36,858 nucleotides of DNA from a virus: IMG/VR virus record IMGVR_UViG_3300046455_000369. The stretch is one strand, 5' to 3'. The position numbers and the translations under genes are program-made. The notes beneath the pieces were generated by a model, which worked only from the letters and a program-made list of their open reading frames with translations, did no database searches and was not told the origin of the DNA. Positions 10,151 to 36,858 of this stretch are shown in pieces (position 1 is the first letter of the stretch; each line of letters begins with the position of its first letter).

Positions 10151-10164
10151 CGTCGTGTCCGGGG

Positions 10165-11208: not shown

Positions 11209-11249
11209 AGCTCCGGTCCCGGCGCAGACGGCGTGCCGGGGCCGGACCG

Positions 11250-11285
11250 ACGGCCGCCTGTTCCCCCCGAGCAGGCGGCCGTTTT
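11250..11285 (+). terminator. Rho-independent terminator after the Cys-rich operon
   Basis: acggccgcctg-ttccccccgag-caggcggccgt followed by tttt/g. Confidence 0.75.
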
Positions 11286-11471
11286 GCGTCTACCTTCGAT
11301 TCGAAGGCGATCACTCACAGGCCCGAATTGAGCCGCAAAGCCGCAGGTCAGCGGGCTGGACTTCCATGACGAACGTCAAGCTCAAGCATGATCCTTTTAG
11401 TGGTGTCGCAGGACCATATTGGGGTTCCCGAACCTGAGACAAAGACGCCTCTAGCGGAGCACACTCGGGGC
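11286..11471. other. Candidate attP-containing and int-promoter region
   Basis: A 186-bp AT-richer non-coding gap directly upstream of the serine integrase gene. It has three short palindromes: CCTTCGAtTCGAAGG (11293-11307), TGACGaaCGTCA (11367-11378) and GGTTCccGAACC (11423-11434). Position is by analogy with other serine-integrase phages. The exact core is not identifiable by eye. Confidence 0.35.
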
Positions 11472-12968
11472 ATGAAGAACACCCAGACGGGGGGCGCCCA
11501 GACGCGCGCGGCCATCTACTGCCGCATCTCGCAGGACCGCACGGGCGCCGGTCTCGGCGTCGACCGGCAGCGCGAGGACTGCCAGGCCCTCGCCGACCGG
11601 AACGGCTGGACGGTCGTCGAGACCTACGTCGACAACGACGTGAGCGCGTACTCGGGGAAGAAGCGCAAGGACTACGAGCGCATGCTGGCCGACCTCGCCG
11701 AGGGCAAGGCCACCGTTGTGATCGTCTGGCACACGGACCGGCTCCACCGCTCGGTCACCGAGCTGGAGAAGTACATCAACATGTGCGAGCAGCGCGGCGT
11801 CACCACCCACACCGTGCAGGCCGGGGAGCTCGACCTCGCTTCACCCACCGGGCGGATGGTGGCGCGGATGCTCGGCAACGTCGCCCGATACGAGTCCGAG
11901 CACAAGGGCGACCGGATCGCGAGGAAGCGCCGGCAGAAAGCCATGGCAGGCGAGTGGGCCGGCGGGATCCGCCCGTTCGGCTGGGGCCTGCCCACCGGCG
12001 AGACGGTCAAGAAGGTGGACCGGAAGACCGGCGACGAGATCGAGGTCCCCGAGCTGGACATGCTCAAGGCCGTGCCCGAGGAGGCCGAGGCCCTGCGCTA
12101 CTGGACGGATCACATCCTGTCCGGCGGGTCGATCCGGTCGCTCGTGCAGTGGTGCGCGGACAAGGGCATCACCTCGACCCGCGGGAACGCCGTCACGCAC
12201 ACCGATATGCGCGACATGCTGCTGCGCCCCAGGAACGCCGGGATCGCCGTCTACAAGGGCGAGGAGGTCGGCCCCGGGCGGTGGGAGCCGATCGTCGCCG
12301 AGACGAAGTTCAGGGCCGTCTGCGCGGTCCTGAGGAACCCGGAGCGGACGACGACCCCGGGCGCCCAGCCGAAATGGCTGGGATCACTGCTGTACCGGTG
12401 CGGCCGCGGGGATTGCCCGGAGTTCGTGTACGTCACCCAGTCGGGCGGCCGCCGGTATCCGTCGTACCGGTGCCAGACCGGGCACGGCGGCGGCCGGCGC
12501 GCCGAGATCGTCGACCAGCATGTCGAGGACACGGTCGTCGAACGGCTGGAAAGAGACGACGCCCCCGACCTGCTGGAGCCCGCACCCGAGGGCGTGAACG
12601 TATCGGCGCTGCAGGCGGAGGCCGAGGACGTCCGGGGCCGGATGCGGAACCTGGCCGGGATGTACGGGGCCGGGCAGATCGACGAGGTGCAGTTCGCCGA
12701 GGGCACCGACACGGCCCGCGGCCAGCTGGAGGGGATTACGCGGCAGCTGGCGCGCGCAGCCCGGGTGGATCCGCTCGTGGAGCTCGTCGGCGCGAAGGAT
12801 GTACGGAAGGCGTGGAAGGCGCTGACCTTGGACCGGAAGCGGTCGGTGCTGCGTTCCCTGGTCACGGTGACGCTGAAGACTCCGCGCGCCGGCCGGATGC
12901 CCGACGGCGGCTACTTCGACTACGACGCCGTCGTCTTTGAGTGGAAGCGGGGATCACCGATCGGATGA
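11472..12968 (+). CDS. int: Large serine recombinase (phage integrase), 498 aa
   Basis: MKNTQTGGAQTRAAIYCRISQDRTG... is a resolvase-type catalytic domain with the Ser nucleophile context YCRIS. A recombinase domain (ARYESEHKGDRIARKRRQKA), a zinc ribbon (YRCGRGDCPEF...YRCQTGHGG) and a coiled-coil region follow. Confidence 0.95.
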   Translation: MKNTQTGGAQTRAAIYCRISQDRTGAGLGVDRQREDCQALADRNGWTVVETYVDNDVSAYSGKKRKDYERMLADLAEGKATVVIVWHTDRLHRSVTELEKYINMCEQRGVTTHTVQAGELDLASPTGRMVARMLGNVARYESEHKGDRIARKRRQKAMAGEWAGGIRPFGWGLPTGETVKKVDRKTGDEIEVPELDMLKAVPEEAEALRYWTDHILSGGSIRSLVQWCADKGITSTRGNAVTHTDMRDMLLRPRNAGIAVYKGEEVGPGRWEPIVAETKFRAVCAVLRNPERTTTPGAQPKWLGSLLYRCGRGDCPEFVYVTQSGGRRYPSYRCQTGHGGGRRAEIVDQHVEDTVVERLERDDAPDLLEPAPEGVNVSALQAEAEDVRGRMRNLAGMYGAGQIDEVQFAEGTDTARGQLEGITRQLARAARVDPLVELVGAKDVRKAWKALTLDRKRSVLRSLVTVTLKTPRAGRMPDGGYFDYDAVVFEWKRGSPIG

Positions 12969-13706
12969 GATCTCGATAACTTCATCCAACTCTCTCAATC
13001 CCCGTTCCAGGGTTCGAATATCCGCGTCACGCCCCCTCTTACCCTCGGGGGCAGCGCGCACTTCTTCCAACTTCCTGAGGAGGATGTCCCTGAGGCTAGT
13101 ACTTTGCCGATTGATCAGCTGCCTCGCCTCCTGCATATCTTGTGCGGTCTCGTCTGGATTCTGCTGCCCCAATCGAAGCAGCTTTTCCTGATGAGCCCGC
13201 GCAACCTCCGCCAGCATGATCGAAGCCATGCCTTCAAACGACATGACCAGCCGCGATGACGCCCCGGAACCCGAGCAGCGGCCGGCGAACTGGGCGATCA
13301 TGGGGATCATCGCCGCGATGTCATCCGGCAAGTCCTCGGCCCTCACCCCATAGCGGTCCAGGAAGTGATCGAATGAGATGTTGTCGGTGGTCGGGGAAGC
13401 TGCGTCGCCCGAGGACTTCTCGCCTCCGGTGTCCTTTTCCGGGAGCCTGAACAGAGGATTCCTCCACATGGGAACCCCTCCACCAAGCACATATTGAGCG
13501 CTTTCAGGAACCCATCCGAGGGCTTCCGAAAGAGCGTAGAGGGACTTGGGCCAGCGGGTCGGAACGCGCCCCTCTTCAGTCAACTGGATGCTCTTCTCCG
13601 AGACTCCGGACAGTTCCGACAGTCGCTTGCGGCTGTACCCATACCGCTCCCGGGCCTTCCGGATCTCTACCCCCAGGCGAGCCCAGTCGTCTGGGTCCCA
13701 CTTCAT
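12954..13706 (-). CDS. cI-like repressor candidate: XRE-family HTH plus about 170-aa C-terminal domain of unknown function
   Basis: MKWDPDDWARLGVEIRKARERYGYSRKRLSELSGVSEKSIQLTEEGRVP is a Cro/C1-type HTH. The gene is on the minus strand, divergent from a Cro-like gene and convergent with int. Alternative starts at 13757 or 13805. The region is visibly AT-richer. Confidence 0.7.
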   Translation of the reverse strand: MKWDPDDWARLGVEIRKARERYGYSRKRLSELSGVSEKSIQLTEEGRVPTRWPKSLYALSEALGWVPESAQYVLGGGVPMWRNPLFRLPEKDTGGEKSSGDAASPTTDNISFDHFLDRYGVRAEDLPDDIAAMIPMIAQFAGRCSGSGASSRLVMSFEGMASIMLAEVARAHQEKLLRLGQQNPDETAQDMQEARQLINRQSTSLRDILLRKLEEVRAAPEGKRGRDADIRTLERGLRELDEVIEISSDR

Positions 13707-13757
13707 GTCAACCACTTGACCCTCCAGGCTGGCAACGATCGGCAACGCCTCAACCAT

Positions 13758-13897
13758 AGAGTCTGGTCGCGACACTGGCAATGAGGACCCCCCGCCTGGT
13801 CGCAACTGGTAACCCAGTGGCCAATGTGACCAGCGGAAACGTGGTTACCTGGCAGTATTGCTTGCTTCATTGCCACTCATTACCTTATGGTCTGGCC
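13758..13897. promoter_or_regulatory. Divergent promoter/operator region of the immunity switch
   Basis: Repeats seen: CTGGTCGC at 13763 and 13796, plus inverted CTGGTCAC (13826-13833). Palindrome ACTGG-TAAC-CCAGT (13805-13818). GGTAACC/GGTTACC inverted pair (13808/13842). A[CG]TGGC(C)AATG at 13774 (+), 13816 (+) and 13868 (-). Confidence 0.55.
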
Positions 13898-14203
13898 ATG
13901 AAGACGGACGGACGCCTGATTCGCCGCAAGCGGATCAGGCTGGGCCACGGGTTGAACCGCTTTGCCGCGCTCGCAGGCATCAGCGGCGCCGCACTCAGCC
14001 GCATCGAAAACGGTCAACGCGCCCCGCGCCCCGAAACGCTCAAAAAGATCACCGATGCACTCGGCTGCCAGATGACCGAGGTCATCGCCGAGGAAGACGG
14101 TGCCTCTCCCGAGTACCAGCCGGGAGAGTCCGCCGGAAACGACGAAGAGGCCGGGTACCAGCCGGCCTCTCCAGTCGAGCAGTCCATCCCTACCGCGAAG
14201 TAA
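13898..14203 (+). CDS. Cro-like XRE-family HTH regulator (101 aa)
   Basis: MKTDGRLIRRKRIRLGHGLNRFAALAGISGAALSRIENGQRAPRPETLKKITDALGC. It is the first gene of the rightward early operon. Confidence 0.75.
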   Translation: MKTDGRLIRRKRIRLGHGLNRFAALAGISGAALSRIENGQRAPRPETLKKITDALGCQMTEVIAEEDGASPEYQPGESAGNDEEAGYQPASPVEQSIPTAK

Positions 14204-19948: not shown

Positions 19949-20577
19949 CCGCATCGTGCGGGCTGTGCGAGACGGACCTCCAGGACGGCTACCTCTGCCC
20001 GGGTGACACGCTCGCCCTGGCGGAGCGGCTGGACCGGATGCCGAAGATCTACGCGGCGCTGGCCGGGTTCCTCGCCCCGGCCGCCCGCGGCATCACCGAA
20101 CGCATCCAGGCCAGCGCCACCCCGGCGCTCCCCGTCGACGAAGCCGTCCTCGACCTGCGGTACGGCGGGATCGCCCTGGTCCTGGAGCAGTGGCGGTCCG
20201 ACGTACAGCGGGTCCGCGGCTGGGGCGAGCCGGCCGTCACCGGGGACCCCGGGCAGCGGGTGATGCGCGCGGCCCGCTGGCTGGGCATGGAACTGTCCTG
20301 GATCGCCGCCAGCTACCCGGCCGCCGGCGACCTGGCCCGCGAGGTCAAGGAGCTGGAGCGTGCGTGCCTGTCGATCGTCGGCGCGCTCCCGGACCGCGGC
20401 CGTCGGCTCGGGCAGTGCGTCTCGATCGACGCCTCGGGCGTGGTGTGCGGGGCGAACATCTACCAGCTGCCGACGCAGACCCGGCTGGTGTGCGACTGGT
20501 GCCAGTGCGTCTATAGCACCCCGCAGGAGTGGGCGCTGCTCGCCCACTACCAGCCGAAGGAGGCCGCCGATGCCTGA
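19945..20577 (+). CDS. Hypothetical protein with N- and C-terminal Cys clusters (210 aa)
   Basis: N-terminus: CGLCETDLQDGYLCPGD. C-terminus: CVSIDASGVVCGAN...LVCDWCQCVY. Track ORF. Confidence 0.55.
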   Translation: MTASCGLCETDLQDGYLCPGDTLALAERLDRMPKIYAALAGFLAPAARGITERIQASATPALPVDEAVLDLRYGGIALVLEQWRSDVQRVRGWGEPAVTGDPGQRVMRAARWLGMELSWIAASYPAAGDLAREVKELERACLSIVGALPDRGRRLGQCVSIDASGVVCGANIYQLPTQTRLVCDWCQCVYSTPQEWALLAHYQPKEAADA

Positions 20578-20740
20578 CCGGATCGTGACCTGCCGGGTCC
20601 TGAACGGGCGCGGCAACCAGTGCACGGGCGAGGCGGTCGACGCCACCGCCGAGCTGCTGATCTGCGCCCGGCACCTGGCGGAGGCGCAGCGCCTCATACA
20701 TGCGGCGTTCCAGCAGGCGCGCCGCCCGGAGAAGACATGA
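20570..20740 (+). CDS. Small Cys/His protein (56 aa)
   Basis: ATG 20570 overlaps the previous gene end. Sequence: MPDRIVTCRVLNGRGNQCTGEAVDATAELLICARHLAEAQRL. Confidence 0.45.
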   Translation: MPDRIVTCRVLNGRGNQCTGEAVDATAELLICARHLAEAQRLIHAAFQQARRPEKT

Positions 20741-21006
20741 CCGACACTACGTCATGGGGGGTTGTGCAAAACCCCGGGTGCGGTATTCTTCTGGAGGTGG
20801 AAACACCGCCCTGGCGGGACCGGATCCGCACGGAAGACGAGTTGCTGGAACAGCTCGACGACCAAGCAGAACAGGCCCGCAGACGACGAGCACAAGCCCT
20901 CGCAGAGGGAGTCGGCGAACTTGGCAGCGTCTACGCCGTAGCCAAGGACCAAGACCTCAGCCAGACCGCCGTATCGAAGGCGATCAAGAAGTACACAACC
21001 GAATAG
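20737..21006 (+). CDS. Hypothetical protein with a possible C-terminal HTH (89 aa)
   Basis: ATGA overlap start at 20737. The C-terminus is VYAVAKDQDLSQTAVSKAIKKY. The 5' end is locally AT-richer. Confidence 0.45.
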   Translation: MTDTTSWGVVQNPGCGILLEVETPPWRDRIRTEDELLEQLDDQAEQARRRRAQALAEGVGELGSVYAVAKDQDLSQTAVSKAIKKYTTE

Positions 21007-21109
21007 ACAGCGAGGGCCGGACGACAGCTCTCCGAGGGGCTGGAACCCCACGGAGGCGCGCGCGTCGCCCGACCCTCTACCGAACATCCTGATTACGCCA
21101 GGAGTCGGC

Positions 21110-21268
21110 ATGACCGATCTTGCCATGCCCGCGGACAGCCGCGGCACCACCCAGACCCGCCGGCTCATCGCCGCGGGCATCATCCGCCGCAGCCCCGGCC
21201 GCACCCTCACCGTGCGCGTCACCGAGGCCGGCGTCACCGGCACCATTCGCAAGGCGGGTGCCCGATGA
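21110..21268 (+). CDS. Small basic protein (52 aa; below the ORF-track cutoff)
   Basis: AGGAG at 21100-21104, ATG 21110. Hand translation: MTDLAMPADSRGTTQTRRLIAAGIIRRSPGRTLTVRVTEAGVTGTIRKAGAR*. ATGA overlap with the next gene. Confidence 0.45.
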   Translation: MTDLAMPADSRGTTQTRRLIAAGIIRRSPGRTLTVRVTEAGVTGTIRKAGAR

Positions 21269-22011
21269 TGCGCAACGACCTGCCCCGCTTCGGGCCGACC
21301 GAAGTGGTCGACGACCCCGGCGTCACGCCCGAGGTCATCGTCCGCACAGACATCGCCCTGTCCCGCGAGCAGCTGGTCGCCGCCCTCAGCGTCGCCTACG
21401 CCAGCCTCGCCCCCGACGTGGACCCCGACTCCCTGACCGTCGTACAGACGCGCACCGAGATCGAGGCCATGCTCACCGAGAGCGGCATCGTCGACATCGA
21501 CAACCTGATCGCCCTTGACCGGGACGGGATCCCCGCCGAGGAGCAGGCCGTCGCCGACGCACTGCGCCGCGCAGTCGACCGGGCCTACCCGACCGACACC
21601 CCCGAGCCGACCCCGCCCCGCAGGCAGGACCCGCGGTACCGCGACGGCACCGTCATCCTTGACACCGTCGACCACGGCGAGGTCACCGTCCGGGAACCCG
21701 CATGGTGCACCGGCCATGACGACGACACCGTCGACTACCTCGCCGGGATCACCCACAACGGCCGCACCTGCGCCACCACCGCGATCACCGCCGAGTTCGG
21801 CGAGGTCACCGTGGCCCGCGCCCAGATCAGCCACGGCCCGCACCTGGTCGAGCAGCCCGAGCCGTACCCCACCCTGCACATCGCCCTCGACCTGCACCAG
21901 TCCTTCAACCCCGAGGACGGCCGCGCCGTCACCCGGGCCCTGCGCGTCGCCGCCTGCCGCATCGACCGAACCCTCGACGACCTCGAAGCCATGCGGAGGG
22001 CAGAGCAGTGA
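21265..22011 (+). CDS. Hypothetical protein (248 aa) with an AWCTGH motif
   Basis: Track ORF. Motif: VREPAWCTGHDDDTVDYLAGITHNG. It is positioned directly upstream of the membrane protein/TraB block. Confidence 0.55.
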   Translation: MMRNDLPRFGPTEVVDDPGVTPEVIVRTDIALSREQLVAALSVAYASLAPDVDPDSLTVVQTRTEIEAMLTESGIVDIDNLIALDRDGIPAEEQAVADALRRAVDRAYPTDTPEPTPPRRQDPRYRDGTVILDTVDHGEVTVREPAWCTGHDDDTVDYLAGITHNGRTCATTAITAEFGEVTVARAQISHGPHLVEQPEPYPTLHIALDLHQSFNPEDGRAVTRALRVAACRIDRTLDDLEAMRRAEQ

Positions 22012-23123
22012 CCACCCGCGAACTCACCAGGGGACAGTCCGCCGTCCTCGCCGTCACCGCGGCCGCCATGGTCGTTGTCGGCAGCTTCGGCGCCTGGGGC
22101 ACCTACACCAACGCCGTGACCGCCTTCCACCGGCAGGCCACCGCCGCCGGTGTCGTCGCCGCCGGAGAAGGGCTGACGTTCGTCCTCGCCCTGATCATGC
22201 TGGTGCGGACGATGCTCAACATGTCCTCGCCGCTGGTCGTCCGCGGCGGCATGTGGCTGGCCCCGGTATCCGCGAGCTGCATCGGCCTGTCCATCGCATC
22301 CACCACCCGAGAGGCCGCGGTGTACGCGGTCACCCCGCTCGCCATGAGCGGGGCCGCCGAGGGCCTCGGGTTCATCGCCCGGTCGGTCGTCGTCTACCGC
22401 ACCGGCCGGGACGCCGAGACGGACCGCCGCAACGCCGCCACCGTGCAGCAGCTGGCGTATCAGCAGGCGCTCGCCGCCGGGCACCCCGACGAGGACGTGA
22501 AGGAAGCCGCGACCCGGAAGGCGTGGAAGCTGATCGGCCGTGTCGGCGTCGGTGACCCGCAGCTCGCCGAGGGCCTGGTCGACGTCTCCCGCACGAAGCT
22601 GACCGCCGGGGCCGGGCACGCCCTGGACCGGATGCTCGCGCTCCCGGCAGGTGATGCGCCGGCCGACCGCCCGGCGCCGAAGTCGACGAACGCGACGGAC
22701 GCGATCCGCGCACACTTCGCCGACATGGACCCGGTCGACGCGGTCCGGCTTGCAGCGGATGCGCGACCTGATGCGGGCCCCGTCGAACTCGCCGGGATCC
22801 TCGGCACCTACGGCCTGACCGTCGACCCTGTGGCGGTCGCTCTGGTCCTCGGTCAGCAGCCTGCCGAGTACATCGTCGAGCGACCTGATGCGGCTGATGC
22901 GCTCCAGGTCAGCGCCCTGGAGCCCGTCGACATGGCGGGCGCGGTCGAGGAGGCCGCATCCGCCCTCGGGCCGGACGCCTCAGCCCGCGATATCGCCGAG
23001 CACATTGCCCGCCACCGGCGCCTGGTCGTCACCGAGCCGTACATCCGCACCGCCCTGTCGAGGGCCTCGAAGAAGCCCCAGCCGGAGACCCCGGCCAAGC
23101 CCATGGAAGGCGGATACGCCTGA
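22008..23123 (+). CDS. Polytopic membrane protein (about 4 N-terminal TM helices, DUF2637/Spd-like architecture) with a long cytoplasmic tail (371 aa)
   Basis: GTGA overlap start. TM segments: SAVLAVTAAAMVVVGSFGAWG, AAGVVAAGEGLTFVLALIMLV, MWLAPVSASCIGLSIA, VYAVTPLAMSGAAEGLGFIA. The family assignment rests on architecture only. Confidence 0.5.
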   Translation: MTTRELTRGQSAVLAVTAAAMVVVGSFGAWGTYTNAVTAFHRQATAAGVVAAGEGLTFVLALIMLVRTMLNMSSPLVVRGGMWLAPVSASCIGLSIASTTREAAVYAVTPLAMSGAAEGLGFIARSVVVYRTGRDAETDRRNAATVQQLAYQQALAAGHPDEDVKEAATRKAWKLIGRVGVGDPQLAEGLVDVSRTKLTAGAGHALDRMLALPAGDAPADRPAPKSTNATDAIRAHFADMDPVDAVRLAADARPDAGPVELAGILGTYGLTVDPVAVALVLGQQPAEYIVERPDAADALQVSALEPVDMAGAVEEAASALGPDASARDIAEHIARHRRLVVTEPYIRTALSRASKKPQPETPAKPMEGGYA

Positions 23124-23299
23124 TGCGCGCACTCCTCGCGGGCGCCCTGCTCGGGCTGCTCTGGATCTCCGCCCCGGCCGTCGTCGCCTACATCGCCGCG
23201 GTGGCCCTGGCCGCCCTGGTGAAGGCGCTCCCCGCCGCGCTGGTCCTCGCCGTCCTGGTCCGCGCCGTCCCGTCCCGGATCCGGAGGTGGGCGCGGTGA
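23123..23299 (+). CDS. Small hydrophobic membrane protein (58 aa; below the track cutoff)
   Basis: TGATG overlap start. Sequence: MRALLAGALLGLLWISAPAVVAYIAAVALAALVKALPAALVLAVLVRAVPSRIRRWAR*. Confidence 0.5.
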   Translation: MRALLAGALLGLLWISAPAVVAYIAAVALAALVKALPAALVLAVLVRAVPSRIRRWAR

Positions 23300-23616
23300 G
23301 CGACGCCCTGAAGAAGGCCGAGGCCGCGGTCACCGAGGCGCAGACGGACACGGTGGCCGTACAACTGGCGCTCGCCGCCGTCGAGCTGGCCAAGGCCGCC
23401 ACCGCCCAGCAGCCGCAGCAGCAGGCGCCGGCCTGTAGCCACCAGCCCCGGCAGGGCCGTAGTACGGGCGAGTGGTTGGGGATCGGCTGCGCCGTGTGCG
23501 TTGGGGGCGTCGGGATCGCCTTCGCGTCCATCGCCATCGCCATCGGCGGCATGTCCGTCGCCATCCTCGCCCTGGTGCTGCGCTCCATCTGGCGAGACCT
23601 GCAGAGGGGACGCTGA
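23296..23616 (+). CDS. Membrane protein (106 aa; N-terminal helix, C-terminal TM)
   Basis: GTGA overlap start at 23296. C-terminal part: ...EWLGIGCAVCVGGVGIAFASIAIAIGGMSVAILALVLRSIW. Confidence 0.5.
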   Translation: MSDALKKAEAAVTEAQTDTVAVQLALAAVELAKAATAQQPQQQAPACSHQPRQGRSTGEWLGIGCAVCVGGVGIAFASIAIAIGGMSVAILALVLRSIWRDLQRGR

Positions 23617-23618
23617 CC

Positions 23619-23801
23619 GTGGCCGACGACATCGACTGGGGCGACCTCAACTGGTCGGAGAAGCGGGCCGTCCTGCGAGCGGACGCAAAGGGCGGCTGGA
23701 GCGTCCTGCGCACCCGCGCCACCAGCACGCCCAAGGCCGACCGCGAGGTCGAGGCCGTCTTCGAGCGGGCCCGCAAGCGCATCGCCAAGGGCAAGAAGTA
23801 G
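23619..23801 (+). CDS. Small basic protein (60 aa)
   Basis: GTG 23619. Sequence: VADDIDWGDLNWSEKRAVLRADAKGGWSVLRTRATSTPKADREVEAVFERARKRIAKGKK*. Confidence 0.4.
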   Translation: MADDIDWGDLNWSEKRAVLRADAKGGWSVLRTRATSTPKADREVEAVFERARKRIAKGKK

Positions 23802-23804
23802 CAC

Positions 23805-23847
23805 CCCGAGGACGGCGCCCTACCGCCAAGCAGCCGCCGTCCTCGGG
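23805..23847 (+). terminator. Perfect 13-bp-stem hairpin (terminator/attenuator) just upstream of the TraB-like gene
   Basis: cccgaggacggcg-(17 nt)-cgccgtcctcggg, with no T-run. Confidence 0.45.
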
Positions 23848-23884
23848 CCACCCGACCGCCCAACAGAACGACCGGAGAACCAGG

Positions 23885-25966
23885 ATGACAGTCCACCTGA
23901 TCAAGCCGGAACAGGACGCCCCCGAGGACGCGCCGGACACCACTCCGTCCTCGACGCGTCCCGAGCGGCGCCGCGCCCGCTATCTCCGCATCACCAAGGC
24001 CGCCCTCACCGACGACCGCGTCCGCACCGCCGGACGCCTCGCCGTCCGCCACGCGTCCTACATCACCGGCGGAGGACGCATCGTCGGACGCCGCGTCTGG
24101 GACAGCCGGTCCACCGCCCGGTACGAGCGGATGATCCGCGCCGCCGAAGCCGCCGGCCTCATGGACGAAGTCAAGGAATGGGAGGCACGCGCCGCCGCCT
24201 ACAAGGCCGCCCGGCACCGCCGCCGCCTCGACATGCTCCAGCTGATGATCCAAGCCCCCAAGGCCCTCGCGTTCGCCACCGTCGGCGGCGCCGGCGTCCT
24301 CCTCCTAGTCGGCATCCTGCTCGCCTGGGGCAGCGGCGACGTCCACGACGTCCTCACCCCCATCGAGACCGTCATCGACCTGGTCCGCTGGTGCGCGTTC
24401 ATCGGCGGCATCGTCTGGGACCCGTTCCTGTTCGCCGCCCCCTGGATCGGGCTCGCCGCCGTCTGGGCCGTCGGCCAGCACCAGCACACCGCCCCCCAGT
24501 GGGCACTGCCCGCAAGCGCCCGCACCTACGGCGACGCCGTCACCCCGTCCATCGTCGTCATCGCCTTCCGTGACCTGGGCATCTCCCCGCTCCGTAAGGC
24601 CATCGACAGCATGGGCGACCTCGGTGGCGCCATGCTCTCCCCGATCACCATCGCGGGCTGCGGCGTCCAGGTCGACGTCCACCTGCCCACCGGCGTCTCC
24701 ACCGAAGAGATCCAGGCCAGGCGCAAGAAGCTCGCCGAGAACCTCAACCGGCACGAACACGAGGTGTTCATCTCCATCCCACCGCAGCCCCGCACCGTCA
24801 GCCTGTGGATCGCCGACTCCGGCGCCCTCGACGAACCCATCGGCCCCTCGCCGCTCGTGCTCGACGACGACATCCACGCCAACTACAAGACCGGCCGCGC
24901 CCCCTGGGGCCAGTCCCTGCGCGGCGACAACGTCGGCATGAGCGTCTACCAGCGGCACGTCCTCATGACCGGCCTGTCCAACCAGGGCAAGACCGCCTCC
25001 CTGCGGGCCGTCGCCCTCTGGCTCGCCTTCGACACCTCCGTCGAGTTCTGGATCGGCGACCTCAAGGGCATCGGCGACTGGCGGATGTTCAACGGCATCG
25101 CCACCGTCCTCATCGAGGGCCCCACCGACGAACACGCCTGCTCCGTCACCGAGATGGTCGAGGCCGCCGTCAAGGAGATGGAGAAGCGCCTCCAGGACCC
25201 GCCCGGCACCGTCCACCACCCGCTCGTCGTCATCGTCGACGAGGCCCAGGTCGCGTTCATGAACCCGCTCAAGGGCGACGACGGCCGCCCCTACGGCGGC
25301 AAGAAGGCCACCAGCAGGTACTTCATGGCCTGCCGCCGCCTCCACAACCAGGGCCGCGCCGTCTCCGTCACCCTGTGGCAGGGCACCCAGGACCCCACCG
25401 ACGAGAACCTGCCCAAGCTGGTCCGCGAGGGCGCCCACATCCGGGCCTCCCTCGTCGTCGGCACCGAGTCCCAGGCCAAGATGGCCCTCGGCGACAAGGC
25501 CGTGAACGCCGGCGCCGCACCTCACCTGCTGCGCCAAGGCCTCGACAAGGGCACCCTCGTCGTCGCCGGCGACGGCATCGAGATCCCGGCCGGGGAACCG
25601 GCCATCACCGTCCGCACCCACTTCATCGACACCGACCCCGCCAAGGAGATCGCAGAGCGCGCCCGCCAGCTCCGCGACGGCATCGCCACCGTCCACCAGC
25701 TGGAGGTCGCCCCCGACGTCGACCACCTCCTCGACCTGGCCGCGGTCGTCGGCCGCGAGAACCGCGTCCGCACCACCGAGGTCATCCACCGGCTCAAGTC
25801 CCGCAACCACCCCGTGTACGAGCACTGGGACGGCAAGCGCCTCAAGGCCCTGCTCGCCGAGTACGGGGAGGAGCCGGGGGTGTCCGACGGCTATCCGGTG
25901 GTCAAGCTGGAGAGCGTCGAGAGGGCCCTCGAACGCCGCGCGGAGCAGCTTGCTGAAGCCCAGTGA
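23885..25966 (+). CDS. TraB/TraSA-like FtsK/SpoIIIE-family dsDNA translocase (693 aa)
   Basis: GGAG RBS, ATG 23885. N-terminal TM helices: ALAFATVGGAGVLLLVGILLAWG and FIGGIVWDPFLFAAPWIGLAAVWAVG. Walker A: LMTGLSNQGKTAS. Walker B: HPLVVIVDEAQVAF. C-terminal wHTH-like region: RVRTTEVIHRLKSRNHPVYEHWDGKRLKALLAEYG. Confidence 0.8.
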   Translation: MTVHLIKPEQDAPEDAPDTTPSSTRPERRRARYLRITKAALTDDRVRTAGRLAVRHASYITGGGRIVGRRVWDSRSTARYERMIRAAEAAGLMDEVKEWEARAAAYKAARHRRRLDMLQLMIQAPKALAFATVGGAGVLLLVGILLAWGSGDVHDVLTPIETVIDLVRWCAFIGGIVWDPFLFAAPWIGLAAVWAVGQHQHTAPQWALPASARTYGDAVTPSIVVIAFRDLGISPLRKAIDSMGDLGGAMLSPITIAGCGVQVDVHLPTGVSTEEIQARRKKLAENLNRHEHEVFISIPPQPRTVSLWIADSGALDEPIGPSPLVLDDDIHANYKTGRAPWGQSLRGDNVGMSVYQRHVLMTGLSNQGKTASLRAVALWLAFDTSVEFWIGDLKGIGDWRMFNGIATVLIEGPTDEHACSVTEMVEAAVKEMEKRLQDPPGTVHHPLVVIVDEAQVAFMNPLKGDDGRPYGGKKATSRYFMACRRLHNQGRAVSVTLWQGTQDPTDENLPKLVREGAHIRASLVVGTESQAKMALGDKAVNAGAAPHLLRQGLDKGTLVVAGDGIEIPAGEPAITVRTHFIDTDPAKEIAERARQLRDGIATVHQLEVAPDVDHLLDLAAVVGRENRVRTTEVIHRLKSRNHPVYEHWDGKRLKALLAEYGEEPGVSDGYPVVKLESVERALERRAEQLAEAQ

Positions 25967-26130
25967 CCCGGCAGTGGTCAGTGACCTTTCACTTCCAAGG
26001 TCACTGACCCGCCCCACTGGCTTTGATCAGCGGAAACAGCGATCAAGTGAGGAAGTGAGGCCGTCTGTAAGGTCCCGTCAGGACCCGGCAAACGGCCTCT
26101 CTGCGCGTCGCACACAAGGTCACTCACTGC
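25958..26130. repeat. Dense AGTGA(C/G) motif array with nested palindromes (candidate clt / iteron / operator cluster)
   Basis: AGTGA on + at 25962, 25980, 26046 and 26054; TCACT at 25989, 26001, 26120 and 26124. GGTCAGTGACC (25976-86) and its reverse complement GGTCACTGACC (25999-26009). Tandem AAGTGAGG x2 (26045-26060). GGTCC-cgtca-GGACC (26071-26085). GATCA x2. Confidence 0.7.
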
Positions 26131-26144
26131 CGCATCATGGGGGC

Positions 26145-26345
26145 ATGGAGTCGCTGACCTACCGCCCCGGCCACTACACCGCCCACCAGACCGCCGAGAT
26201 CCTCGACGTCGGCCTCGGAACCATCCGGCAGATGGTCCGGCGCGGCCAGCTCCGCCGCTCCGGCGGGACCCCGCGGCAGCCCTGGTACCCCGCCGCAGAG
26301 GTCAACGCGCTCGCCGCGAAACGACAAGAGCGCGTTGCCGCTTGA
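26145..26345 (+). CDS. Excisionase-family (MerR-like) HTH DNA-binding protein (66 aa)
   Basis: MESLTYRPGHYTAHQTAEILDVGLGTIRQMVRRGQLRRSGGTPRQPWYPAAEVNALAAKRQ fits the Xis-type HTH pattern. Confidence 0.65.
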   Translation: MESLTYRPGHYTAHQTAEILDVGLGTIRQMVRRGQLRRSGGTPRQPWYPAAEVNALAAKRQERVAA

Positions 26346-26415
26346 CCAGCAGGTCAGAGCGATGTAACGATCTCGGTGTACAACTGTGCCCGCAGACGGC
26401 ACCACAGACGCACAC

Positions 26416-26448
26416 GAAGCCCCGGCCAATCCCCCCGGCCGGGGCTTC
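26416..26448 (+). terminator. 12-bp-stem GC hairpin after the HTH gene
   Basis: gaagccccggcc-aatcccccc-ggccggggcttc, with no T-run (common in Streptomyces). Confidence 0.55.
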
Positions 26449-26611
26449 GTCGTGCCAGGCCGCCGCCGCCCGAGCGAGGGGCAGAGGTGACCCCACGCGG
26501 CCGCTCCGGCGCGCGGCGGCCCCCAACCGTCACAACACGGCCACACCACCCCCAAGCCGTCCCCAAGCGGCGCATGATGCCCCATCAGCATCAGCACACC
26601 CTGGGGGGACC

Positions 26612-27193
26612 ATGAACACACGCACAGTCACCTGCGCCGCCCTGCTCGGCCTCGCCGCCACCCTGACCGCCTGCAGCAGCAGCGGAGACCCCAAGCCCGC
26701 CGTCACCGTCACACAGACCGTGACCGCCTCACCCGGCTCCAGCGCAAGCCCCGCGGCCGCCGACAACGGCTCGCTGAAGATGGGCGCCGTCAAGACCATC
26801 GACGACACCGCCAACGACGTCCACATCACCATCCAGGCCCTGGCCTACCAGCAGCCCTACAAGGGCCCGCAGCCCCAGAAGCCGGACAAGAGCCTGGGCG
26901 GCGACACCTGGTCCACCATCAACGTCAAGGTCTGCAACACCAGCGGCCCCGACATCAACGTCAGTCAGGACCCCTGGTCCCTCGACTACGCCGACGGAAC
27001 CAGCATCAAGACCACCGGCCTCTCGGGCGGCGACATGCCTAAGCCCGAGTTCCCCATGGATAAGGCCATCAAGGCTGGCCGCTGCGCCGCAGGCCTGATC
27101 GCATTCCCGGTCGAGAGCAGCAAGACGCCCGCGCGCGTCATCTACGCCCCCGACGGCGCCGAGCCCATCGAATGGGCCGTCGCCGCGTCCTGA
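26612..27193 (+). CDS. Lipoprotein (193 aa; lipobox LTAC; DUF4352-like beta-sandwich suspected)
   Basis: MNTRTVTCAALLGLAATLTAC|SSSGDP is a signal peptide plus lipobox. ATG 26612 follows ggggggac. It is preceded by a 266-bp non-coding stretch and a hairpin. Confidence 0.75.
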   Translation: MNTRTVTCAALLGLAATLTACSSSGDPKPAVTVTQTVTASPGSSASPAAADNGSLKMGAVKTIDDTANDVHITIQALAYQQPYKGPQPQKPDKSLGGDTWSTINVKVCNTSGPDINVSQDPWSLDYADGTSIKTTGLSGGDMPKPEFPMDKAIKAGRCAAGLIAFPVESSKTPARVIYAPDGAEPIEWAVAAS

Positions 27194-27209
27194 CCGACGG
27201 GAGGCGCCC

Positions 27210-27500
27210 GTGCCCGGCAACCCGCGCAACGGGCGCCCATACCGCCGCCTCGTCGCCGCACAGAAAGCCCTCGGCCTGCCCTGCTGGTGGTGCGGCGAAC
27301 CCATCCGCTACGACATCACCGGCCCCCTCGCCGGCCGCCACCGCCACGCCTTCACCCTCGACCACGCCACCCCGCTCAGCCGCGGTGGCGACCTCCTCGA
27401 CCCCGCCAACGCCCGCAGCGCGCACCGCCACTGCAACTCGGCCCGCGGCAACCGCACCGACCACAAACGGCAACCGATCCGATCCTCCCGGAGGTGGTGA
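27210..27500 (+). CDS. HNH endonuclease (96 aa)
   Basis: CWWCGEPI...HAFTLDHATPLSRGGDLLDPANARSAHRHCNSARGN is an HNH motif with a CxxC...HxxC zinc site. It lies upstream of the terminase genes. Confidence 0.9.
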   Translation: MPGNPRNGRPYRRLVAAQKALGLPCWWCGEPIRYDITGPLAGRHRHAFTLDHATPLSRGGDLLDPANARSAHRHCNSARGNRTDHKRQPIRSSRRW

Positions 27501-27502
27501 CC

Positions 27503-27712
27503 ATGGCAGTCCCCGCTGCGCCCACACCGTTCCTCCTGCGCCTGGCCGACGGGCGCACATGGGCTGGCGCCGAGTTCGGCCCCGGCCGCTTCGTCTGCGT
27601 CTACCACCCCGGCGAGATCAACCTCTGCACCATCGCGGTGACCTTGACGGACCTGCTCGACGTCCCCGAGGGCAACCCGCTGCACGGCGCCACCGTCGAG
27701 GCTTACGAGTAG
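27503..27712 (+). CDS. Hypothetical protein (69 aa)
   Basis: ATG 27503. Sequence: MAVPAAPTPFLLRLADGRTWAGAEFGPGRFVCVYHPGEINLCTIAVTLTDLLDVPEGNPLHGATVEAYE*. Confidence 0.45.
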   Translation: MAVPAAPTPFLLRLADGRTWAGAEFGPGRFVCVYHPGEINLCTIAVTLTDLLDVPEGNPLHGATVEAYE

Positions 27713-27738
27713 CCGAAAGCGAGGGGGGAGGTAACACC

Positions 27739-28176
27739 GTGCTGATCGTGGTCACCGGGCCGCCAACCGGTGGCAAGTCCTCATGGATCCAGTCCCACGC
27801 CACAGCCCGTGACATCGTCATCGACCTAGACCTCCTCACCCGGGCCCTGTCCGGGCCCGGCGCCCCCCAGTGGAACCAGGACCCGCTCCAGCTCAAGGTG
27901 GCCCACCGCGCCCGGTACGCCGCCATGGACGCCGCCTACGAGGTACGCGACCAGGTCGATGTCTACCTGATCCACACCATGCCCAGCGGCAAGGCACTCG
28001 CCCGGTACAAGCGCCTTGGAGCTCGCATCGTCACCGTCGACCCCGGCCGCGACGTGGTCATGCAGCGCATCGAGGCCATGCGCGACCAGGACATGCAGAG
28101 GGTCGCAACCCGCTGGTACAACAACCGGCCGGCCTCGTCACCGAGCGCGATGCCCCAGACGTCACGGCCCTGGTGA
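27739..28176 (+). CDS. Small P-loop NTPase (145 aa)
   Basis: RBS gaggggggagg, then GTG 27739. Walker A: VLIVVTGPPTGGKSSW. Possible Walker B: VYLIHT. The class (kinase-like or ATPase) is unresolved. Confidence 0.6.
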   Translation: MLIVVTGPPTGGKSSWIQSHATARDIVIDLDLLTRALSGPGAPQWNQDPLQLKVAHRARYAAMDAAYEVRDQVDVYLIHTMPSGKALARYKRLGARIVTVDPGRDVVMQRIEAMRDQDMQRVATRWYNNRPASSPSAMPQTSRPW

Positions 28177-28384
28177 GCACCGGCTCGGCCTGATCGCAGA
28201 GCAGATGATCACGGCACCTAGGGGGGTACGCCGACGACGGAAAGTGCCTTCCCGGGCGACCCAAACGCCCTTGTCGCCCGATTTTTTGCGCGGCGATTTT
28301 TTCTTGATCAATTCGCGTGAACTCAGTTCGGCCCTTTTAGCGGCGGTCACCGTGCGTGACTGTCACCCTCCGTGATGGGCGGTC
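28177..28384. other. Candidate cos / terminase-recognition region
   Basis: A 208-bp AT-richer gap between the P-loop gene and terS. CGATTTTTT x2 (28279, 28294). TCTTGATCA x2 (28302, 28383). Palindrome GTGAC-t-GTCAC (28356-28366). GTCACC x3 (28346, 28362, 28400). An HNH gene is nearby. Confidence 0.45.
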
Positions 28385-28669
28385 TTGATCATGGGCATGG
28401 TCACCGACAAGATCAAACAAGAGATCCAAGATCTTCGTGCCGACGAAACCACGCCCGGCCTCGCGCAAGTCGCCATCGCCCTCGCCGAGTCGATCGACGA
28501 GCCCGGCGGCCCCACCGGCAAGGCGAACGCCGCCCGAGAGCTGCGCGCCGTGATGAACGACCTCCGCAAGCTCGCGCCGATCGCCGAGGAGGGGGACACC
28601 GTCGATGACATTGCTCAGCAACGAGCGAAGCGCCAAGCCGCCGCCCGCGAGAAGGCAGCCGGTGGCTGA
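28385..28669 (+). CDS. terS: Terminase small subunit (about 94 aa)
   Basis: Position immediately upstream of and overlapping terL. Actinophage TerS-like helical protein (GLAQVAIALAESIDEPGGPTGKANAARELRAVMNDLRKL). Alternative starts at 28391 and 28397. Confidence 0.65.
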   Translation: MIMGMVTDKIKQEIQDLRADETTPGLAQVAIALAESIDEPGGPTGKANAARELRAVMNDLRKLAPIAEEGDTVDDIAQQRAKRQAAAREKAAGG

Positions 28670-30149
28670 CGGCCCCGCGCAGGGCTGGCAGGCGCCGCCG
28701 ATCGAGACCGCGCCGCCGTCGGTGACGACGGCCGGCCAGGAGGCGATCGATCTTGCGGCGCGGGCCGGGCTGCGCTTGGACCCGTGGCAGCAGCACGTCC
28801 TGCGACAGGGGATGGGCGAGCAGGCCGACGGCAACTGGGCAGCGTTCGAGGTCGCCGTCAACGTTCCCCGCCAGAACGGCAAGGGCGGGATCATCGAGGC
28901 CCGGGAGCTGTGGGGCCTGTTCATCGGCGGCGAGCAGCTGATCCTGCACTCGGCACACGAGTTCAAGACGGCAAAGAACGCGTTCAAGCGGATCGAGCGT
29001 CTCATCCGCGCGTGCCCTGACCTGCACAAACGTGTGAGGGCGTACCGGTACACGGTCGGTGAGGAGTCCATCGAGCTGCACACCGGGCAGGTGCTGCGGT
29101 TCATCGCCCGCTCCAAGGGCTCCGGGCGTGGCTTCACCGGCGACTGCAACATCCTCGACGAGGACATGATCCTGGGCGACGAAGCGATGGACGCGCTGCT
29201 GCCCACGATGGCAGCCGTCGCCAACCCGCAGATCTGGTACCTGGGTTCAGCCGGGATCGGCACCCCCTCGGTGCAGCTGGGACGCCTGCGCCGGCGGGCG
29301 CTCGCAGCGATCGAGACCGGCACCCCCGACCCGTCGCTTGCCTACATGGAGTGGTCGTGCGACCTGCACGTGGACGAGTGCCCGCAGAACTGCGAGGCGC
29401 ACGACGACGCTGCCTCGGACGAGGCGGTGCTGAAGTCCAATCCGGCGGTCGGCTTCCGGCTGACCCTGGAGAAGGTCCGGAACGAGCGGTCGACGCTGAG
29501 CGCGGCCGGCTTCGCGAGGGAGCGGCTCGGCGTGGGCGACTATCCATCCGACGAAGCGGACACGTGGCAGGTCATCGGGCAGGACGCATGGCGGGCTCTG
29601 GCGGACGTTGGCAGCGCCCCGAGTGACCCGGTGGCCTTCTCCATCGACATGACGCCGGAACGCAGCCACGCGGCTATCTGCGTGGCCGGGTACTGGCAGG
29701 GCGGCGTGCACGTCGAGGTGGTTGACCACCGTCCCGGCACCGGCTGGATTCTCGAACGGGCCAAGGAACTGCATGAGCGGTGGGGGCCGCGCTGCTGGGT
29801 GGTCGACGGCGGCGGCCCGGCCGGATCGCTCATCCCCGACCTGGAGGACGAGGAGAAGGGCCTGGGCGTCACCGTCGTCCAACCGAAGGCCCGGGAGATC
29901 GCGCAGGCCTGCGCGCAGTTCTACGACGCCGTCACCGAGCAGAACCTGAGTCACCTTGACCAGGCGCCGCTGGCGTCCGCGCTGGCGGGCGCTCAGAAGC
30001 GACCGCTCGGCGACGCGTGGGCGTGGGCCCGCCGGATCGTCTCCGTGGACATCAGCCCGCTGGTGGCCGCGACGTTCGCGAAGTGGGGGCTGTCGGCGGT
30101 GCTCGACGAGCAGGAAGAGGAGGCGCTGCCGTGGGCGGAGTACGGATGA
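28605..30149 (+). CDS. terL: Terminase large subunit (up to 514 aa)
   Basis: Walker A-like VNVPRQNGKGG. Walker B-like CNILDEDM. A C-terminal nuclease-like domain is present. Alternative start GTG 28662 gives a short overlap with terS. Confidence 0.9.
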   Translation: MTLLSNERSAKPPPARRQPVADGPAQGWQAPPIETAPPSVTTAGQEAIDLAARAGLRLDPWQQHVLRQGMGEQADGNWAAFEVAVNVPRQNGKGGIIEARELWGLFIGGEQLILHSAHEFKTAKNAFKRIERLIRACPDLHKRVRAYRYTVGEESIELHTGQVLRFIARSKGSGRGFTGDCNILDEDMILGDEAMDALLPTMAAVANPQIWYLGSAGIGTPSVQLGRLRRRALAAIETGTPDPSLAYMEWSCDLHVDECPQNCEAHDDAASDEAVLKSNPAVGFRLTLEKVRNERSTLSAAGFARERLGVGDYPSDEADTWQVIGQDAWRALADVGSAPSDPVAFSIDMTPERSHAAICVAGYWQGGVHVEVVDHRPGTGWILERAKELHERWGPRCWVVDGGGPAGSLIPDLEDEEKGLGVTVVQPKAREIAQACAQFYDAVTEQNLSHLDQAPLASALAGAQKRPLGDAWAWARRIVSVDISPLVAATFAKWGLSAVLDEQEEEALPWAEYG

Positions 30150-35997: not shown

Positions 35998-36858
35998 ATG
36001 GCGATCGGATCCGGTCTCGGCGCCCAGCTGGGTATCAGCGCTGAGAGCACCTACGGCACCTATGTGGCGCCCACGAAGTTCGTGGAGTTCACCAAGGAGT
36101 CGCTGGTCCTGAAGAAGACCACCGCGCAGTCTGCCGGCATCGCGGCTGGCCGTCTGCTGCCGCTGTCGTCCCGGCGGGTCATCACCCGCAAGGAGGTCAG
36201 CGGGACGATTGACCTGGAGGTGGCCAACAAGGGCATGGGGCTCCTGTTCCAGGCCCTCATGGGGACGTCGGTCACGCCGGTGCAGCAGGCTGCTTCGACC
36301 GCGTACCTGCAGACGCACACGCTCGCCGACACGGCCGGGAAGAGCCTCACGATCCAGAAGGGCGTGCCGCTCACCACGGGCACGGTCACGGACAAGTCGT
36401 TCCTGGGCTGCAAGGTCACCAGCGCGGAGTTCTCGTGCGAGGTCGGCGGCATGCTGACTGTCACGTTCGAGTTCGACGGCAAGGACTGCGACGAGGGCCA
36501 GACGCTGGCCGTCGCCTCGTACTCGAACATGTCCCCGTTCAACTTCGCGCAGATGGCCTTCAAGACCGGCACGTTCGGCTCGGAGGCCGCGCTGGACGGC
36601 ATCCGCAAGGTGTCCTGCAAGATCGAGCGGGCGATGGACGTGGAGCGGTTCTACGCCAACCAGGCCGCGCTGAAGAAGGAGCCCATCTCGAACGACCTGG
36701 TCAAGATCAGCGGGTCGATCGAGAAGGACTACGTCGCGACGACGCTGGACGACCTGCACACCTCAGACGGGGCGACGGCGATGGTGTGGGAGTTCATCGG
36801 CCCGATCATCGCCTCGACCTACAACGAGACGTTCAGGATCAAGCTGCCCGCGATCAAG
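35998..36858 (+). CDS. Major tail (tube) protein, 5' portion (runs off the window end; continues at 128-253)
   Basis: GAAGGAGGG RBS, ATG 35998. Hand translation: MAIGSGLGAQLGISAESTYGTYVAPTKFVEFTKESLVLKK...FEFDGKDCDEG..., with no stop before the window end. It is absent from the ORF track for that reason. Confidence 0.75.
   Translation, partial: MAIGSGLGAQLGISAESTYGTYVAPTKFVEFTKESLVLKKTTAQSAGIAAGRLLPLSSRRVITRKEVSGTIDLEVANKGMGLLFQALMGTSVTPVQQAASTAYLQTHTLADTAGKSLTIQKGVPLTTGTVTDKSFLGCKVTSAEFSCEVGGMLTVTFEFDGKDCDEGQTLAVASYSNMSPFNFAQMAFKTGTFGSEAALDGIRKVSCKIERAMDVERFYANQAALKKEPISNDLVKISGSIEKDYVATTLDDLHTSDGATAMVWEFIGPIIASTYNETFRIKLPAIK
36732..36858. repeat. Window-terminal overlap, copy 2 (identical to 1-127)
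   Basis: Direct comparison of both window ends: 127/127 identical. Confidence 0.95.

Follow-up and report, generated by a model that had tools for sequence, protein, structure and literature searches.

The window analysed here, i.e. the whole stretch of 36,858 nucleotides of the virus record IMGVR_UViG_3300046455_000369, is the genome of a temperate siphovirus of Streptomyces, and the subject of this report is a block of co-oriented genes in its early operon (21265–26345). At its centre is a gene on the + strand (23885–25966) for a predicted TraB/Tra-type, FtsK-like translocase of double-stranded DNA (dsDNA) with a length of 693 amino acids (aa), here called the motor. It is preceded by genes of membrane proteins and followed by an array of ten 7-bp sites with the core AGTG(A/G) (25961–26129), which resembles clt, the cis-acting transfer locus of Streptomyces plasmids; the first gene 3' of the array (26145–26345, +) codes for a small DNA-binding protein. 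The original prediction, made from the letters of the window, had likened this arrangement to the DNA-transfer genes of AICEs (integrative and conjugative elements found in actinomycetes).

The motor protein and its relatives

The gene model of the motor is right because homologues of 690–711 aa cover 100% of the protein. Its layout comprises a cytoplasmic N-terminus of about 120 aa, a membrane anchor (aa ~124–198), a RecA-type motor region (aa ~255–580) and a winged helix (aa 614–674). Two segments that are hydrophobic by hydropathy analysis, aa 124–157 and aa 166–198, lie inside long helices of the AlphaFold model. The size of the protein and the presence of transmembrane (TM) helices are as originally predicted, with the correction that the helices are not situated at the extreme N-terminus, but behind the cytoplasmic part. 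The Walker A motif GLSNQGKT (aa 363–370; 24971–24994, +) and the Walker B motif LVVIVDEAQ (aa 447–455; 25223–25249, +), which had led to its recognition as an FtsK/SpoIIIE motor, are present; G363 and S365–T370 of the former and D452, E453, A454 and Q455 of the latter are invariant among 58 homologues. The AlphaFold model has a predicted local distance difference test (pLDDT) score of 72 overall and of 80–90 in the motor region. Foldseek aligned it with the FtsK motor structures 2IUT (E = 8.5e-15) and 6T8B (E ~1e-14 and TM-score on target 0.60–0.67 for the two), and the match next after the FtsK structures was the conjugation coupling protein TcpA. The C-terminal winged helix (25724–25906, +) is formed by the helices 614–622, 630–640 and 650–658 and the wing strands 665–667 and 670–674. 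When the last 88 aa were modelled alone, they adopted an H-E-H-H-E-E topology with a pLDDT of 88, bearing out the originally proposed winged-helix-like tail.

Residues 260–607 of the motor matched PHROG family 1358, 'FtsK/SpoIIIE-like protein' (E = 7.7e-19), which PHROG lists in the category 'moron, auxiliary metabolic gene and host takeover'. The features of a chromosomal FtsK/SpoIIIE protein were not found: the score with PF01580 (FtsK_SpoIIIE) was 21.3 bits, below the cut-off of 24 bits, a phmmer search of the PDB sequences with the motor returned nothing at E ≤ 1, and the nearest relatives are encoded by mobile elements. A comparison with chromosomal FtsK had been proposed as a check on the original prediction; the motor resembles Tra proteins of AICEs instead. 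Sequence comparison thus places it in the conjugative Tra lineage of actinomycetes and apart from chromosomal FtsK. Within this lineage it is, from the same kind of evidence, not an equivalog of the plasmid_TraB proteins, but a member of a separate Tra lineage common with AICEs.

The protein database contains 2669 relatives of the motor; the best 120, at about 60–86% identity, are nearly all from Streptomyces. For comparison of gene contexts, 80 genome loci (of 473 genome hits) and 16 IMG/VR loci were taken with flanks of 10 kb and searched with every protein of the window and every protein of an AICE-like element. The exact sequence of the window's protein is absent from public assemblies, and the motor open reading frame (ORF) is intact in all relatives examined. 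A tblastn search with the motor against 50,697 GenBank phage records gave no match at E ≤ 1e-5; with the motor domain alone, at E ≤ 1, only Bacillus and Clostridium phages were hit. Megablast of positions 20000–28000 against the phage records was likewise negative.

The best plasmid match of the motor is the Tra protein of a 13.5-kb circular Streptomyces element (NZ_CP108827.1; 52% identity over 93% of the length), whose gene order int, xis, DUF3631, prim-pol (primase-polymerase), Tra, small genes, spdB and GntR is the textbook layout of an AICE. In about 62 AICE loci, Tra genes code for proteins 57–62% identical to the motor. AICE Tra proteins such as that of NZ_CP108827.1 resemble the motor at 52–62% identity over the full length and share its TM anchor, motor region and winged helix. 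The relatives fall into two contexts. About 18 loci with motors at least 68% identical (68–86%) carry the phage genes of the window in the same order, including those for the single-stranded DNA-binding protein (SSB), a 210-aa protein, the DUF6907 protein, the 106-aa membrane protein, the helix-turn-helix (HTH) protein, the HNH endonuclease, terS and the large terminase (TerL). Loci with motors of at most 62% identity are free of phage genes; they contain DUF6284, spdB or what replaces it, a zinc protein of the RRQRL type, prim-pol, DUF3631, xis, int and GntR. A neighbour-joining tree unites the motors in phage context in one clade beside the AICE clade. The predicted transfer block is, by these comparisons, integral to the phage lineage.

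Most of the remaining loci, of 'unknown context', belong to other phage lineages, in which the terminase families, the portals and the tail proteins differ; some of them are placed on basal branches. The locus contexts and the tree show that the Tra family is common to AICEs and several prophage lineages. Motor relatives at 49–62% identity are found in the other prophage lineages at L053, L090, L091, L093–L095 and L097 (terminases phrog_38 and phrog_19179; different portals and tail genes). At locus L014, the motor lies in an island without virion genes within 10 kb, and L051 contains two FtsK-like genes about 8 kb apart (87–2201 and 10001–12028). Outside Streptomyces, the 41.9-kb circular 'plasmid' pPaSha2 of Pseudonocardia alni (L002) has phage genes (Bet recombinase, holin) on board and a DUF2637 membrane protein gene directly 5' of an FtsK-like gene whose product is 26% identical to the window's motor, i.e. 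it is a further phage-like element with a membrane protein–motor gene pair.

The repeat array and its covariation with the winged helix

The repeat array noticed in the original prediction is a unique cluster: of the 30 copies of the core AGTGA/TCACT in the window, eight lie within 25962–26128, where 0.16 per 200 bp are expected, and no other cluster of this core exists in the whole window. The forward sites are located at 25961, 25972, 25979, 26045 and 26053, and the reverse sites at 25988, 26000, 26013, 26119 and 26123. Three forward sites are followed by three reverse ones; after a palindrome of 24 bp come two forward sites spaced by 8 bp, then a stem-loop and finally two reverse sites that overlap. 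The TGA stop codon of the motor gene is inside the first site, and the array extends through most of the 178-bp gap (25967–26144) to end 15 bp 5' of the start codon of the gene for the 66-aa HTH protein. Clustered short repeats at the 3' end of a tra gene are what a cognate clt would look like. The palindrome TTGATCAGCGGAAACAGCGATCAA (26023–26046) between the array halves contains two GATC sites and is conserved in the phage clade; the AICE loci have a related CTGACCTGC..GATC element at its place.

The GC-rich stem-loop inside the array (26054–26102, +) has a minimum free energy of −28.5 kcal/mol (z = −4.7), a stability reached by none of 200 shuffled sequences, and compensatory changes were observed in 8 of its 16 pairs across 14 loci. 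The early/transfer operon probably terminates at this stem-loop; a T-tract is lacking, and a scan of 20600–28700 for T-tract terminators did not call it.

The same array layout is present in all 17 aligned loci of related prophages. Behind the Tra genes of AICEs there is likewise an array of ten sites with a palindrome and a hairpin, in which CAGGGAG takes the place of CAGTGA; its core AGGGAG differs from the AGTGA of the window, with matching changes in the wing of the Tra protein. Other prophage lineages have arrays with other motifs, namely CGGTG (L091), CAGGGAA (L097) and GTTAG (L094).

Comparison of the wing residues of the motor with the sites at 95 loci revealed a perfect association of wing residues and site core. 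The wing 'KS-DG(V/R)M' occurs with the core AGGGAG at 55 of 55 loci, 'KS-HG' with GGGGAG at nine of nine, 'DGYP' (Y-P) with AGTGA at 15 of 15, and 'TGYP' with GGTG at the single locus of this type. The covarying residues G665, V666, S667, D668, Y670 and P671 are those of the two wing strands and the turn in the structural model. At the loci L056 and L073, which are not sisters in the neighbour-joining tree, the aligned C-terminal region is like that of the D type save for a change of D to H (and one nearby change of V to I), matching the change of A to G in the sites. The motor of L063 groups overall with a D-type protein (compared with L062 and the L036 group), while its winged helix and array are of the H/CGGGGAG type; this mosaic suggests that winged helix and sites were exchanged as a unit.

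Inside the phage clade, two subclades differ in the central base of all ten sites: 138 of 140 cells have T in the subclade of the window, and 38 of 40 have G in its sister. Such a concerted ten-site difference between phage subclades argues that recognition has been maintained inside phages. Taken together, there is strong comparative evidence that the motor reads the sites of the array, and the comparison is taken to show that this predicted recognition stayed under selection within phages. The array would fit a clt-type transfer locus kept functional inside phages. If this is correct, the residue–base pairs (D/A, H/G and Y-P/T) would amount to a recognition code for this Tra family.

Two other assignments of the repeats were rejected. 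A role as iterons of the replicase is at odds with the finding that L009 and L086 share the 891-aa protein of the window (84% identity) and carry another motif, and that most relatives with the same motif are without the 891-aa protein. The 9-mer GACCCGGCA (25965–25973 and 26082–26090) was considered as a TraB site; its second copy lies in a hairpin arm, is not conserved, and is regarded as chance. The likeness of GACCCGGCA to GACCCGGA, the 8-bp TraB site of pSVH1, was likewise dismissed as chance.

Neighbouring genes and the phage genome

Like the 693-aa protein, the membrane proteins postulated 5' of the motor gene were borne out by hydropathy analysis, as was the position of the 371-aa protein in the place of an Spd protein by gene context. 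The 371-aa integral membrane protein (22008–23123, +; phrog_16651, E = 2.7e-38) has four hydrophobic segments within aa 6–129 and a soluble C-terminal half, and its gene overlaps the neighbouring genes. It gave no Pfam or NCBIfam match. Homologues in related prophages are 59–69% identical, and its N-terminal ~200 aa have homologues of 40–49% identity in 18 AICE loci, where they are encoded between DUF6284 and the RRQRL protein, i.e. in the spdB slot; among AICE loci, the 371-aa type and the annotated spdB type are mutually exclusive. Four TM helices and a gene in the operon 5' of tra are the properties of an SpdB2-type protein. The 371-aa protein is a candidate Spd-type spreading protein, an assignment that is based on position and topology because similarity to a named SpdB is undetectable. 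Relatives with 38–45% identity are encoded by the isolated Streptomyces phages YDN12, TP1604, Mischief19, phiSAJS1 and Geonosis.

Translationally coupled to the gene of the 371-aa protein is that of a small hydrophobic membrane protein of 58 aa (23123–23299, +), which was called from its coding score, has a hydropathy peak of 2.4 across aa 1–54 and gave no family match in Pfam, PHROG or NCBIfam. The next gene (23296–23616, +) codes for a membrane protein of 106 aa, which is amphipathic at the N-terminus and hydrophobic over its C-terminal 40 aa, as judged from hydropathy; it shares 37% identity (E = 1e-5) with a 110-aa protein of the AICE-like element L001, and homologues are found 5' of the motor in 16 loci. 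The synteny with AICEs, another check proposed with the original prediction, consists of the spdB-slot protein, the 106-aa protein, Tra and the array. The block further contains the gene of a DUF6907 protein of 248 aa (21265–22011, +; Pfam E = 4.3e-17), whose homologues (30–54% identity) are confined to phage-context loci, i.e. related prophages, and that of a basic protein of 60 aa (23619–23801, +; coding score 37.8) without significant match in Pfam or PHROG. The 66-aa protein encoded 3' of the array is HTH_17/MerR/excisionase-like, in line with the excisionase-type HTH originally named; it matches HTH_17 (E = 1.3e-5, 25.8 bits at a cut-off of 27), phrog_2474 (E = 8e-9) and TIGR01764 (E = 0.0023). 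Its gene is found downstream in most, though not all, relatives that carry the array.

The window ends in an exact direct repeat of 127 bp (1–127 and 36732–36858), and a virion gene that begins near 36066 (MAIGSGLGAQ...) spans the junction of the ends; because of these two findings, the window is regarded as a circular assembly of 36,731 bp. Genes were called from codon scores and translations. The G+C content is 70%, and almost every gene is on the + strand. The virion and lysis set comprises TerL, portal, head protease, major capsid, head-tail adaptor, tape measure, endolysin and a collagen-like tail fibre; a serine integrase (Resolvase and Recombinase domains), a Cro-like HTH protein and SSB are also encoded. 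The immunity region (12954–14203), which is the sole low-GC stretch of the window (61%), contains the gene of a 283-aa Xre-type repressor on the minus strand, divergent from that of a 101-aa Cro-like HTH_3 protein. Immediately 5' of TerL, the region 27210–28669 codes for an HNH endonuclease, an AAA_33/terS-like protein of 145 aa and a protein of 94 aa, a gene layout typical for HNH-assisted cos packaging. No tRNA genes were found, and a sigma-70 promoter scan of 20600–28700 yielded nothing useful. With terminase, portal, protease, capsid, tape measure, lysin, integrase and repressor in one circularly closed element, the window is a complete temperate siphovirus, as had been predicted.

The claim that the window also contains the hallmark gene set of AICEs was not upheld, since only the transfer module is common. 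An AICE is defined by Int, Rep and Tra (Ghinet et al. 2011); the window has a serine integrase and Tra, and an AICE-type Rep was not found. AICE int/xis, RepSA, RepAM/DUF3631 and the Pfam Prim-Pol family were not found either. The supposed prim-pol replicase is the 891-aa protein, which is without Pfam match and has a weak similarity to the DNA polymerase/primase family phrog_2478 only (E = 3.3e-5). The Kor-like GntR regulator could be detected neither by Pfam searches of the called genes nor by tblastn with the GntR protein of L001. Whereas AICEs are small plasmid-like elements without virion genes, the window lacks the AICE integration, replication and GntR genes and has full head, tail, packaging and lysis modules and an immunity set. 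A nested AICE in a prophage was rejected because AICE int, xis, rep and GntR are absent and because synteny and co-orientation hold for the block in about 18 prophages. As AICE int, rep and GntR genes are missing, the element is better described as a phage with a transfer module than as a phage–AICE fusion.

Proposed role of the transfer block

We propose that the block is a dsDNA transfer module of the Streptomyces type, consisting of a Tra motor, a cis-acting clt and Spd-like proteins, which is integral to a lineage of temperate siphoviruses and would spread the phage genome without virions. We assign this reading a probability of roughly 0.6. What the comparisons establish is homology, synteny, the array, its conservation and the covariation with the winged helix; that the motor binds the array, translocates DNA and has this biological role is inferred. 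After induction or infection, the early operon would yield the motor, which would insert into the membrane via aa ~124–198 and assemble into an FtsK-like ring. Its C-terminal winged helices would recognise the ten sites of CAGTGA type in the ~170-bp array, so that the ring is loaded on the circular phage genome, and hydrolysis of ATP would drive dsDNA across the membrane at cross-walls or where hyphae touch. The 371-aa protein with its four TM helices and the small membrane proteins may assist in this, as Spd proteins do in plasmids. In this way, the phage genome would reach adjacent compartments of the hypha, and possibly other hyphae, without virions. Because a kil-kor repressor is absent and the block is part of the early operon, expression is probably under control of the phage repressor and would follow induction or infection.

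The closest parallel among plasmids is the clt of the Streptomyces theta-type plasmid pWTY27. Its TraA protein has 688 aa and two TM helices, and its clt, made up of 16 bp inside traA and 159 bp downstream, contains inverted repeats as well as direct repeats of 7 bp; TraA binds this clt, and transfer depends on it (PMC3583192). The array of the window likewise starts in the stop codon of the motor gene, spans ~170 bp and has 7-bp sites. The repeats of pWTY27 (TGACACC and CCCGCCC) are different, and the plasmid search gave no close sequence relation; binding and transfer have been demonstrated for pWTY27, whereas we infer them from sequence for the window. The FtsK-like motor of pSVH1 consists of TraB alone, whose winged helix at the C-terminus recognises 8-bp repeats in clt (PMC4447253; Vogelmann 2011, as cited there and in PMC3583192). 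In pSVH1, the four-TM protein SpdB2 and small Spd proteins, encoded in a coupled operon, direct intramycelial spreading; SpdB2 forms pores, binds peptidoglycan and DNA and is needed for pock formation (PMC4447253). The sequence relation of the motor to this system is remote, and pSVH1 has the GntR-type regulator TraR, which has no counterpart in the window. Unlike in SpdB2, the TM helices of the 371-aa protein are N-terminal. A combination of phage and conjugative functions is described for pZL12, a Streptomyces plasmid-phage that forms phage particles and shows tra-dependent conjugal transfer, using the major tra gene and adjacent genes (Zhong et al. 2010, as cited in PMC3583192 and others). 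According to these citing papers, pZL12 is a singleton, an extrachromosomal plasmid-prophage of ~90 kb with ParAB; the window is an integrating siphovirus of 36.7 kb.

Several observations weigh against a transfer module. The motor scored 18.5 bits with the NCBIfam model plasmid_TraB (NF041214), the cut-off of which is 800. Nearly all Foldseek matches of the winged helix are winged-helix DNA binders, yet all at E > 0.1, i.e. they are matches of fold class only, and FtsK-gamma was not among the top 50. The 371-aa protein shows no similarity to the annotated 'protein spdB' of L001 (BLASTP E = 2.3). The dN/dS ratio (nonsynonymous to synonymous substitution rate) of the motor, 0.33–0.70, indicates only mildly purifying selection and exceeds that of TerL in most comparisons, with the reservation that these values are unreliable because synonymous divergence plateaus at ~0.3 at 90% G+C in third codon positions. 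The switch to CAGTGA is a single evolutionary event, and the proposed binding and transfer by the motor are deduced from comparison. The absence of a GntR repressor for kil-kor control implies that regulation differs from that in plasmids and AICEs. Moreover, the timing of the benefit is puzzling, as the lytic programme kills the donor compartment.

A wider and more tentative proposal, which we consider rather less probable than the one for the lineage of the window, is that several temperate Streptomyces siphovirus lineages are 'conjugative phages', each with a TraB-type motor and a co-evolving clt that would move the dsDNA genome across cross-walls and possibly between hyphae, independently of virions and receptors. 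AICE and phage modules would then exchange freely, and AICE Tra genes may even derive from phages because phage-borne versions are situated on basal branches of the Tra family. Among isolated phages, the Woodruffvirus YDN12 (gp71, 686 aa) and Mischief19 (gp79) have annotated FtsK-like translocases of PHROG 1358 with a length similar to that of the window's motor, to which they show no BLAST-level similarity. In YDN12, gp71 directly follows gp70, the homologue of the 371-aa protein, with a gap of ~325 bp; in Mischief19, the homologue is encoded two genes from the convergently oriented translocase gene. All six GGAACGG copies of a 7.3-kb stretch of YDN12 (L099) lie between gp70 and gp71 within 124 bp (4960–5083) in one orientation, so that a clt-like array may exist as well in isolated phages whose FtsK-like motor is very different. 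Mischief19 (L100) has a perfect 17-bp hairpin and GTGGCC-type repeats 11 bp apart past the 3' end of the FtsK-like gene (5860–6005); as an exact 7-mer, GGTGGCC shows no enrichment there relative to chance. Thoma et al. (2015) remarked that SpdB2 homologues in phiC31 and VWB may spread phage DNA; their remark covered SpdB2 alone, without a pair of motor and clt and without comparative evidence.

The covariation of wing and sites speaks for sequence-directed loading, not for a particular destination of the DNA. The motor might act on phage DNA via the array within one cell, serving segregation or partition, clearing DNA from closing or sporulation septa, or excluding AICEs and plasmids; FtsK/SpoIIIE relatives do act on chromosomes in this way, and the GntR-type kil-kor control of conjugative elements is missing. 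We nevertheless consider such an intracellular role unlikely, as the nearest relatives of the motor are conjugative Tra proteins rather than FtsK, the motor travels with Spd-slot membrane proteins, which plasmids use for spreading across cross-walls, and a phage that integrates by a serine integrase scarcely needs partition.

Even less probable is that the motor is a host-takeover factor acting on septation, sporulation or chromosome segregation of Streptomyces, with repeats that are unrelated to it. The literature lists ftsK together with whiB, parB and ssgA as phage genes that possibly manipulate development, and the PHROG category quoted above points in the same direction. Given the remoteness of the motor from chromosomal FtsK (by PF01580 score and the search of the PDB sequences) and its closeness to AICE Tra, this is not what would be expected; besides, a phage-borne cis array that tracks the wing of the motor makes little sense for a factor directed at the host.

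An improbability of the same order attaches to the idea that the array is an operator/terminator region of the late operon, bound by the 66-aa HTH protein or the repressor, and that its adjacency to the motor merely reflects gene order. The strong conserved hairpin, the distance of only 15 bp to the HTH start codon and the frequency of repeated operators in phage control regions would be in keeping with it. The array, however, still follows the motor at loci whose HTH gene is displaced or missing (L003, L012, L087, L015, L051, L014), and also in AICEs, where another gene lies downstream. The identity of the HTH protein does not track the motif type, that of L009 (AGGGAG) being 65% and that of L005 (AGTGA) 49% identical to the window's protein, and at the immunity region (12954–14203) the core is present only as single chance copies.

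That a prophage captured an AICE, of which the block would be the decaying and now functionless remnant, is hardly credible: it might account for the dN/dS values and for the L014 island, but the ORF is full-length, the Walker motifs are invariant and the array is kept in ~18 prophages at 68–86% identity, the concerted ten-site change requires selection, and remnants of AICE int, rep and regulator genes were not found beside the block.

FtsK-like genes of actinophages have been annotated before and are usually discussed as possible host-development genes; the statement of the original prediction that their role is untested agrees with the literature searched. Such annotated genes and, as far as the papers citing it go, the tra-dependent plasmid-phage pZL12 are already known. 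The literature searched contained no description of an integrating siphovirus lineage with a motor closely related to AICE Tra, of a conserved clt-type array on phage genomes, or of covariation between such an array and the winged helix of the motor. While FtsK-like genes are widespread in actinophages, the motor is paired here with a predicted cognate cis site that tracks named residues of the motor.

Returning to the transfer module as the preferred reading, the occurrence of a plasmid-type DNA pump and its apparent repeats in a complete phage suggests that the genome may move between hyphal compartments or cells without particles. Should the module function as it does in plasmids, a second, virion-free route of spread would be open to a phage with a mycelial host, and this route would bypass receptor-based resistance and the compartmentation by cross-walls. 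Plaques, lysogenisation and the containment of infection in Streptomyces would then have to be interpreted differently, and the line between prophages and AICEs would be blurred in genome-mining pipelines.

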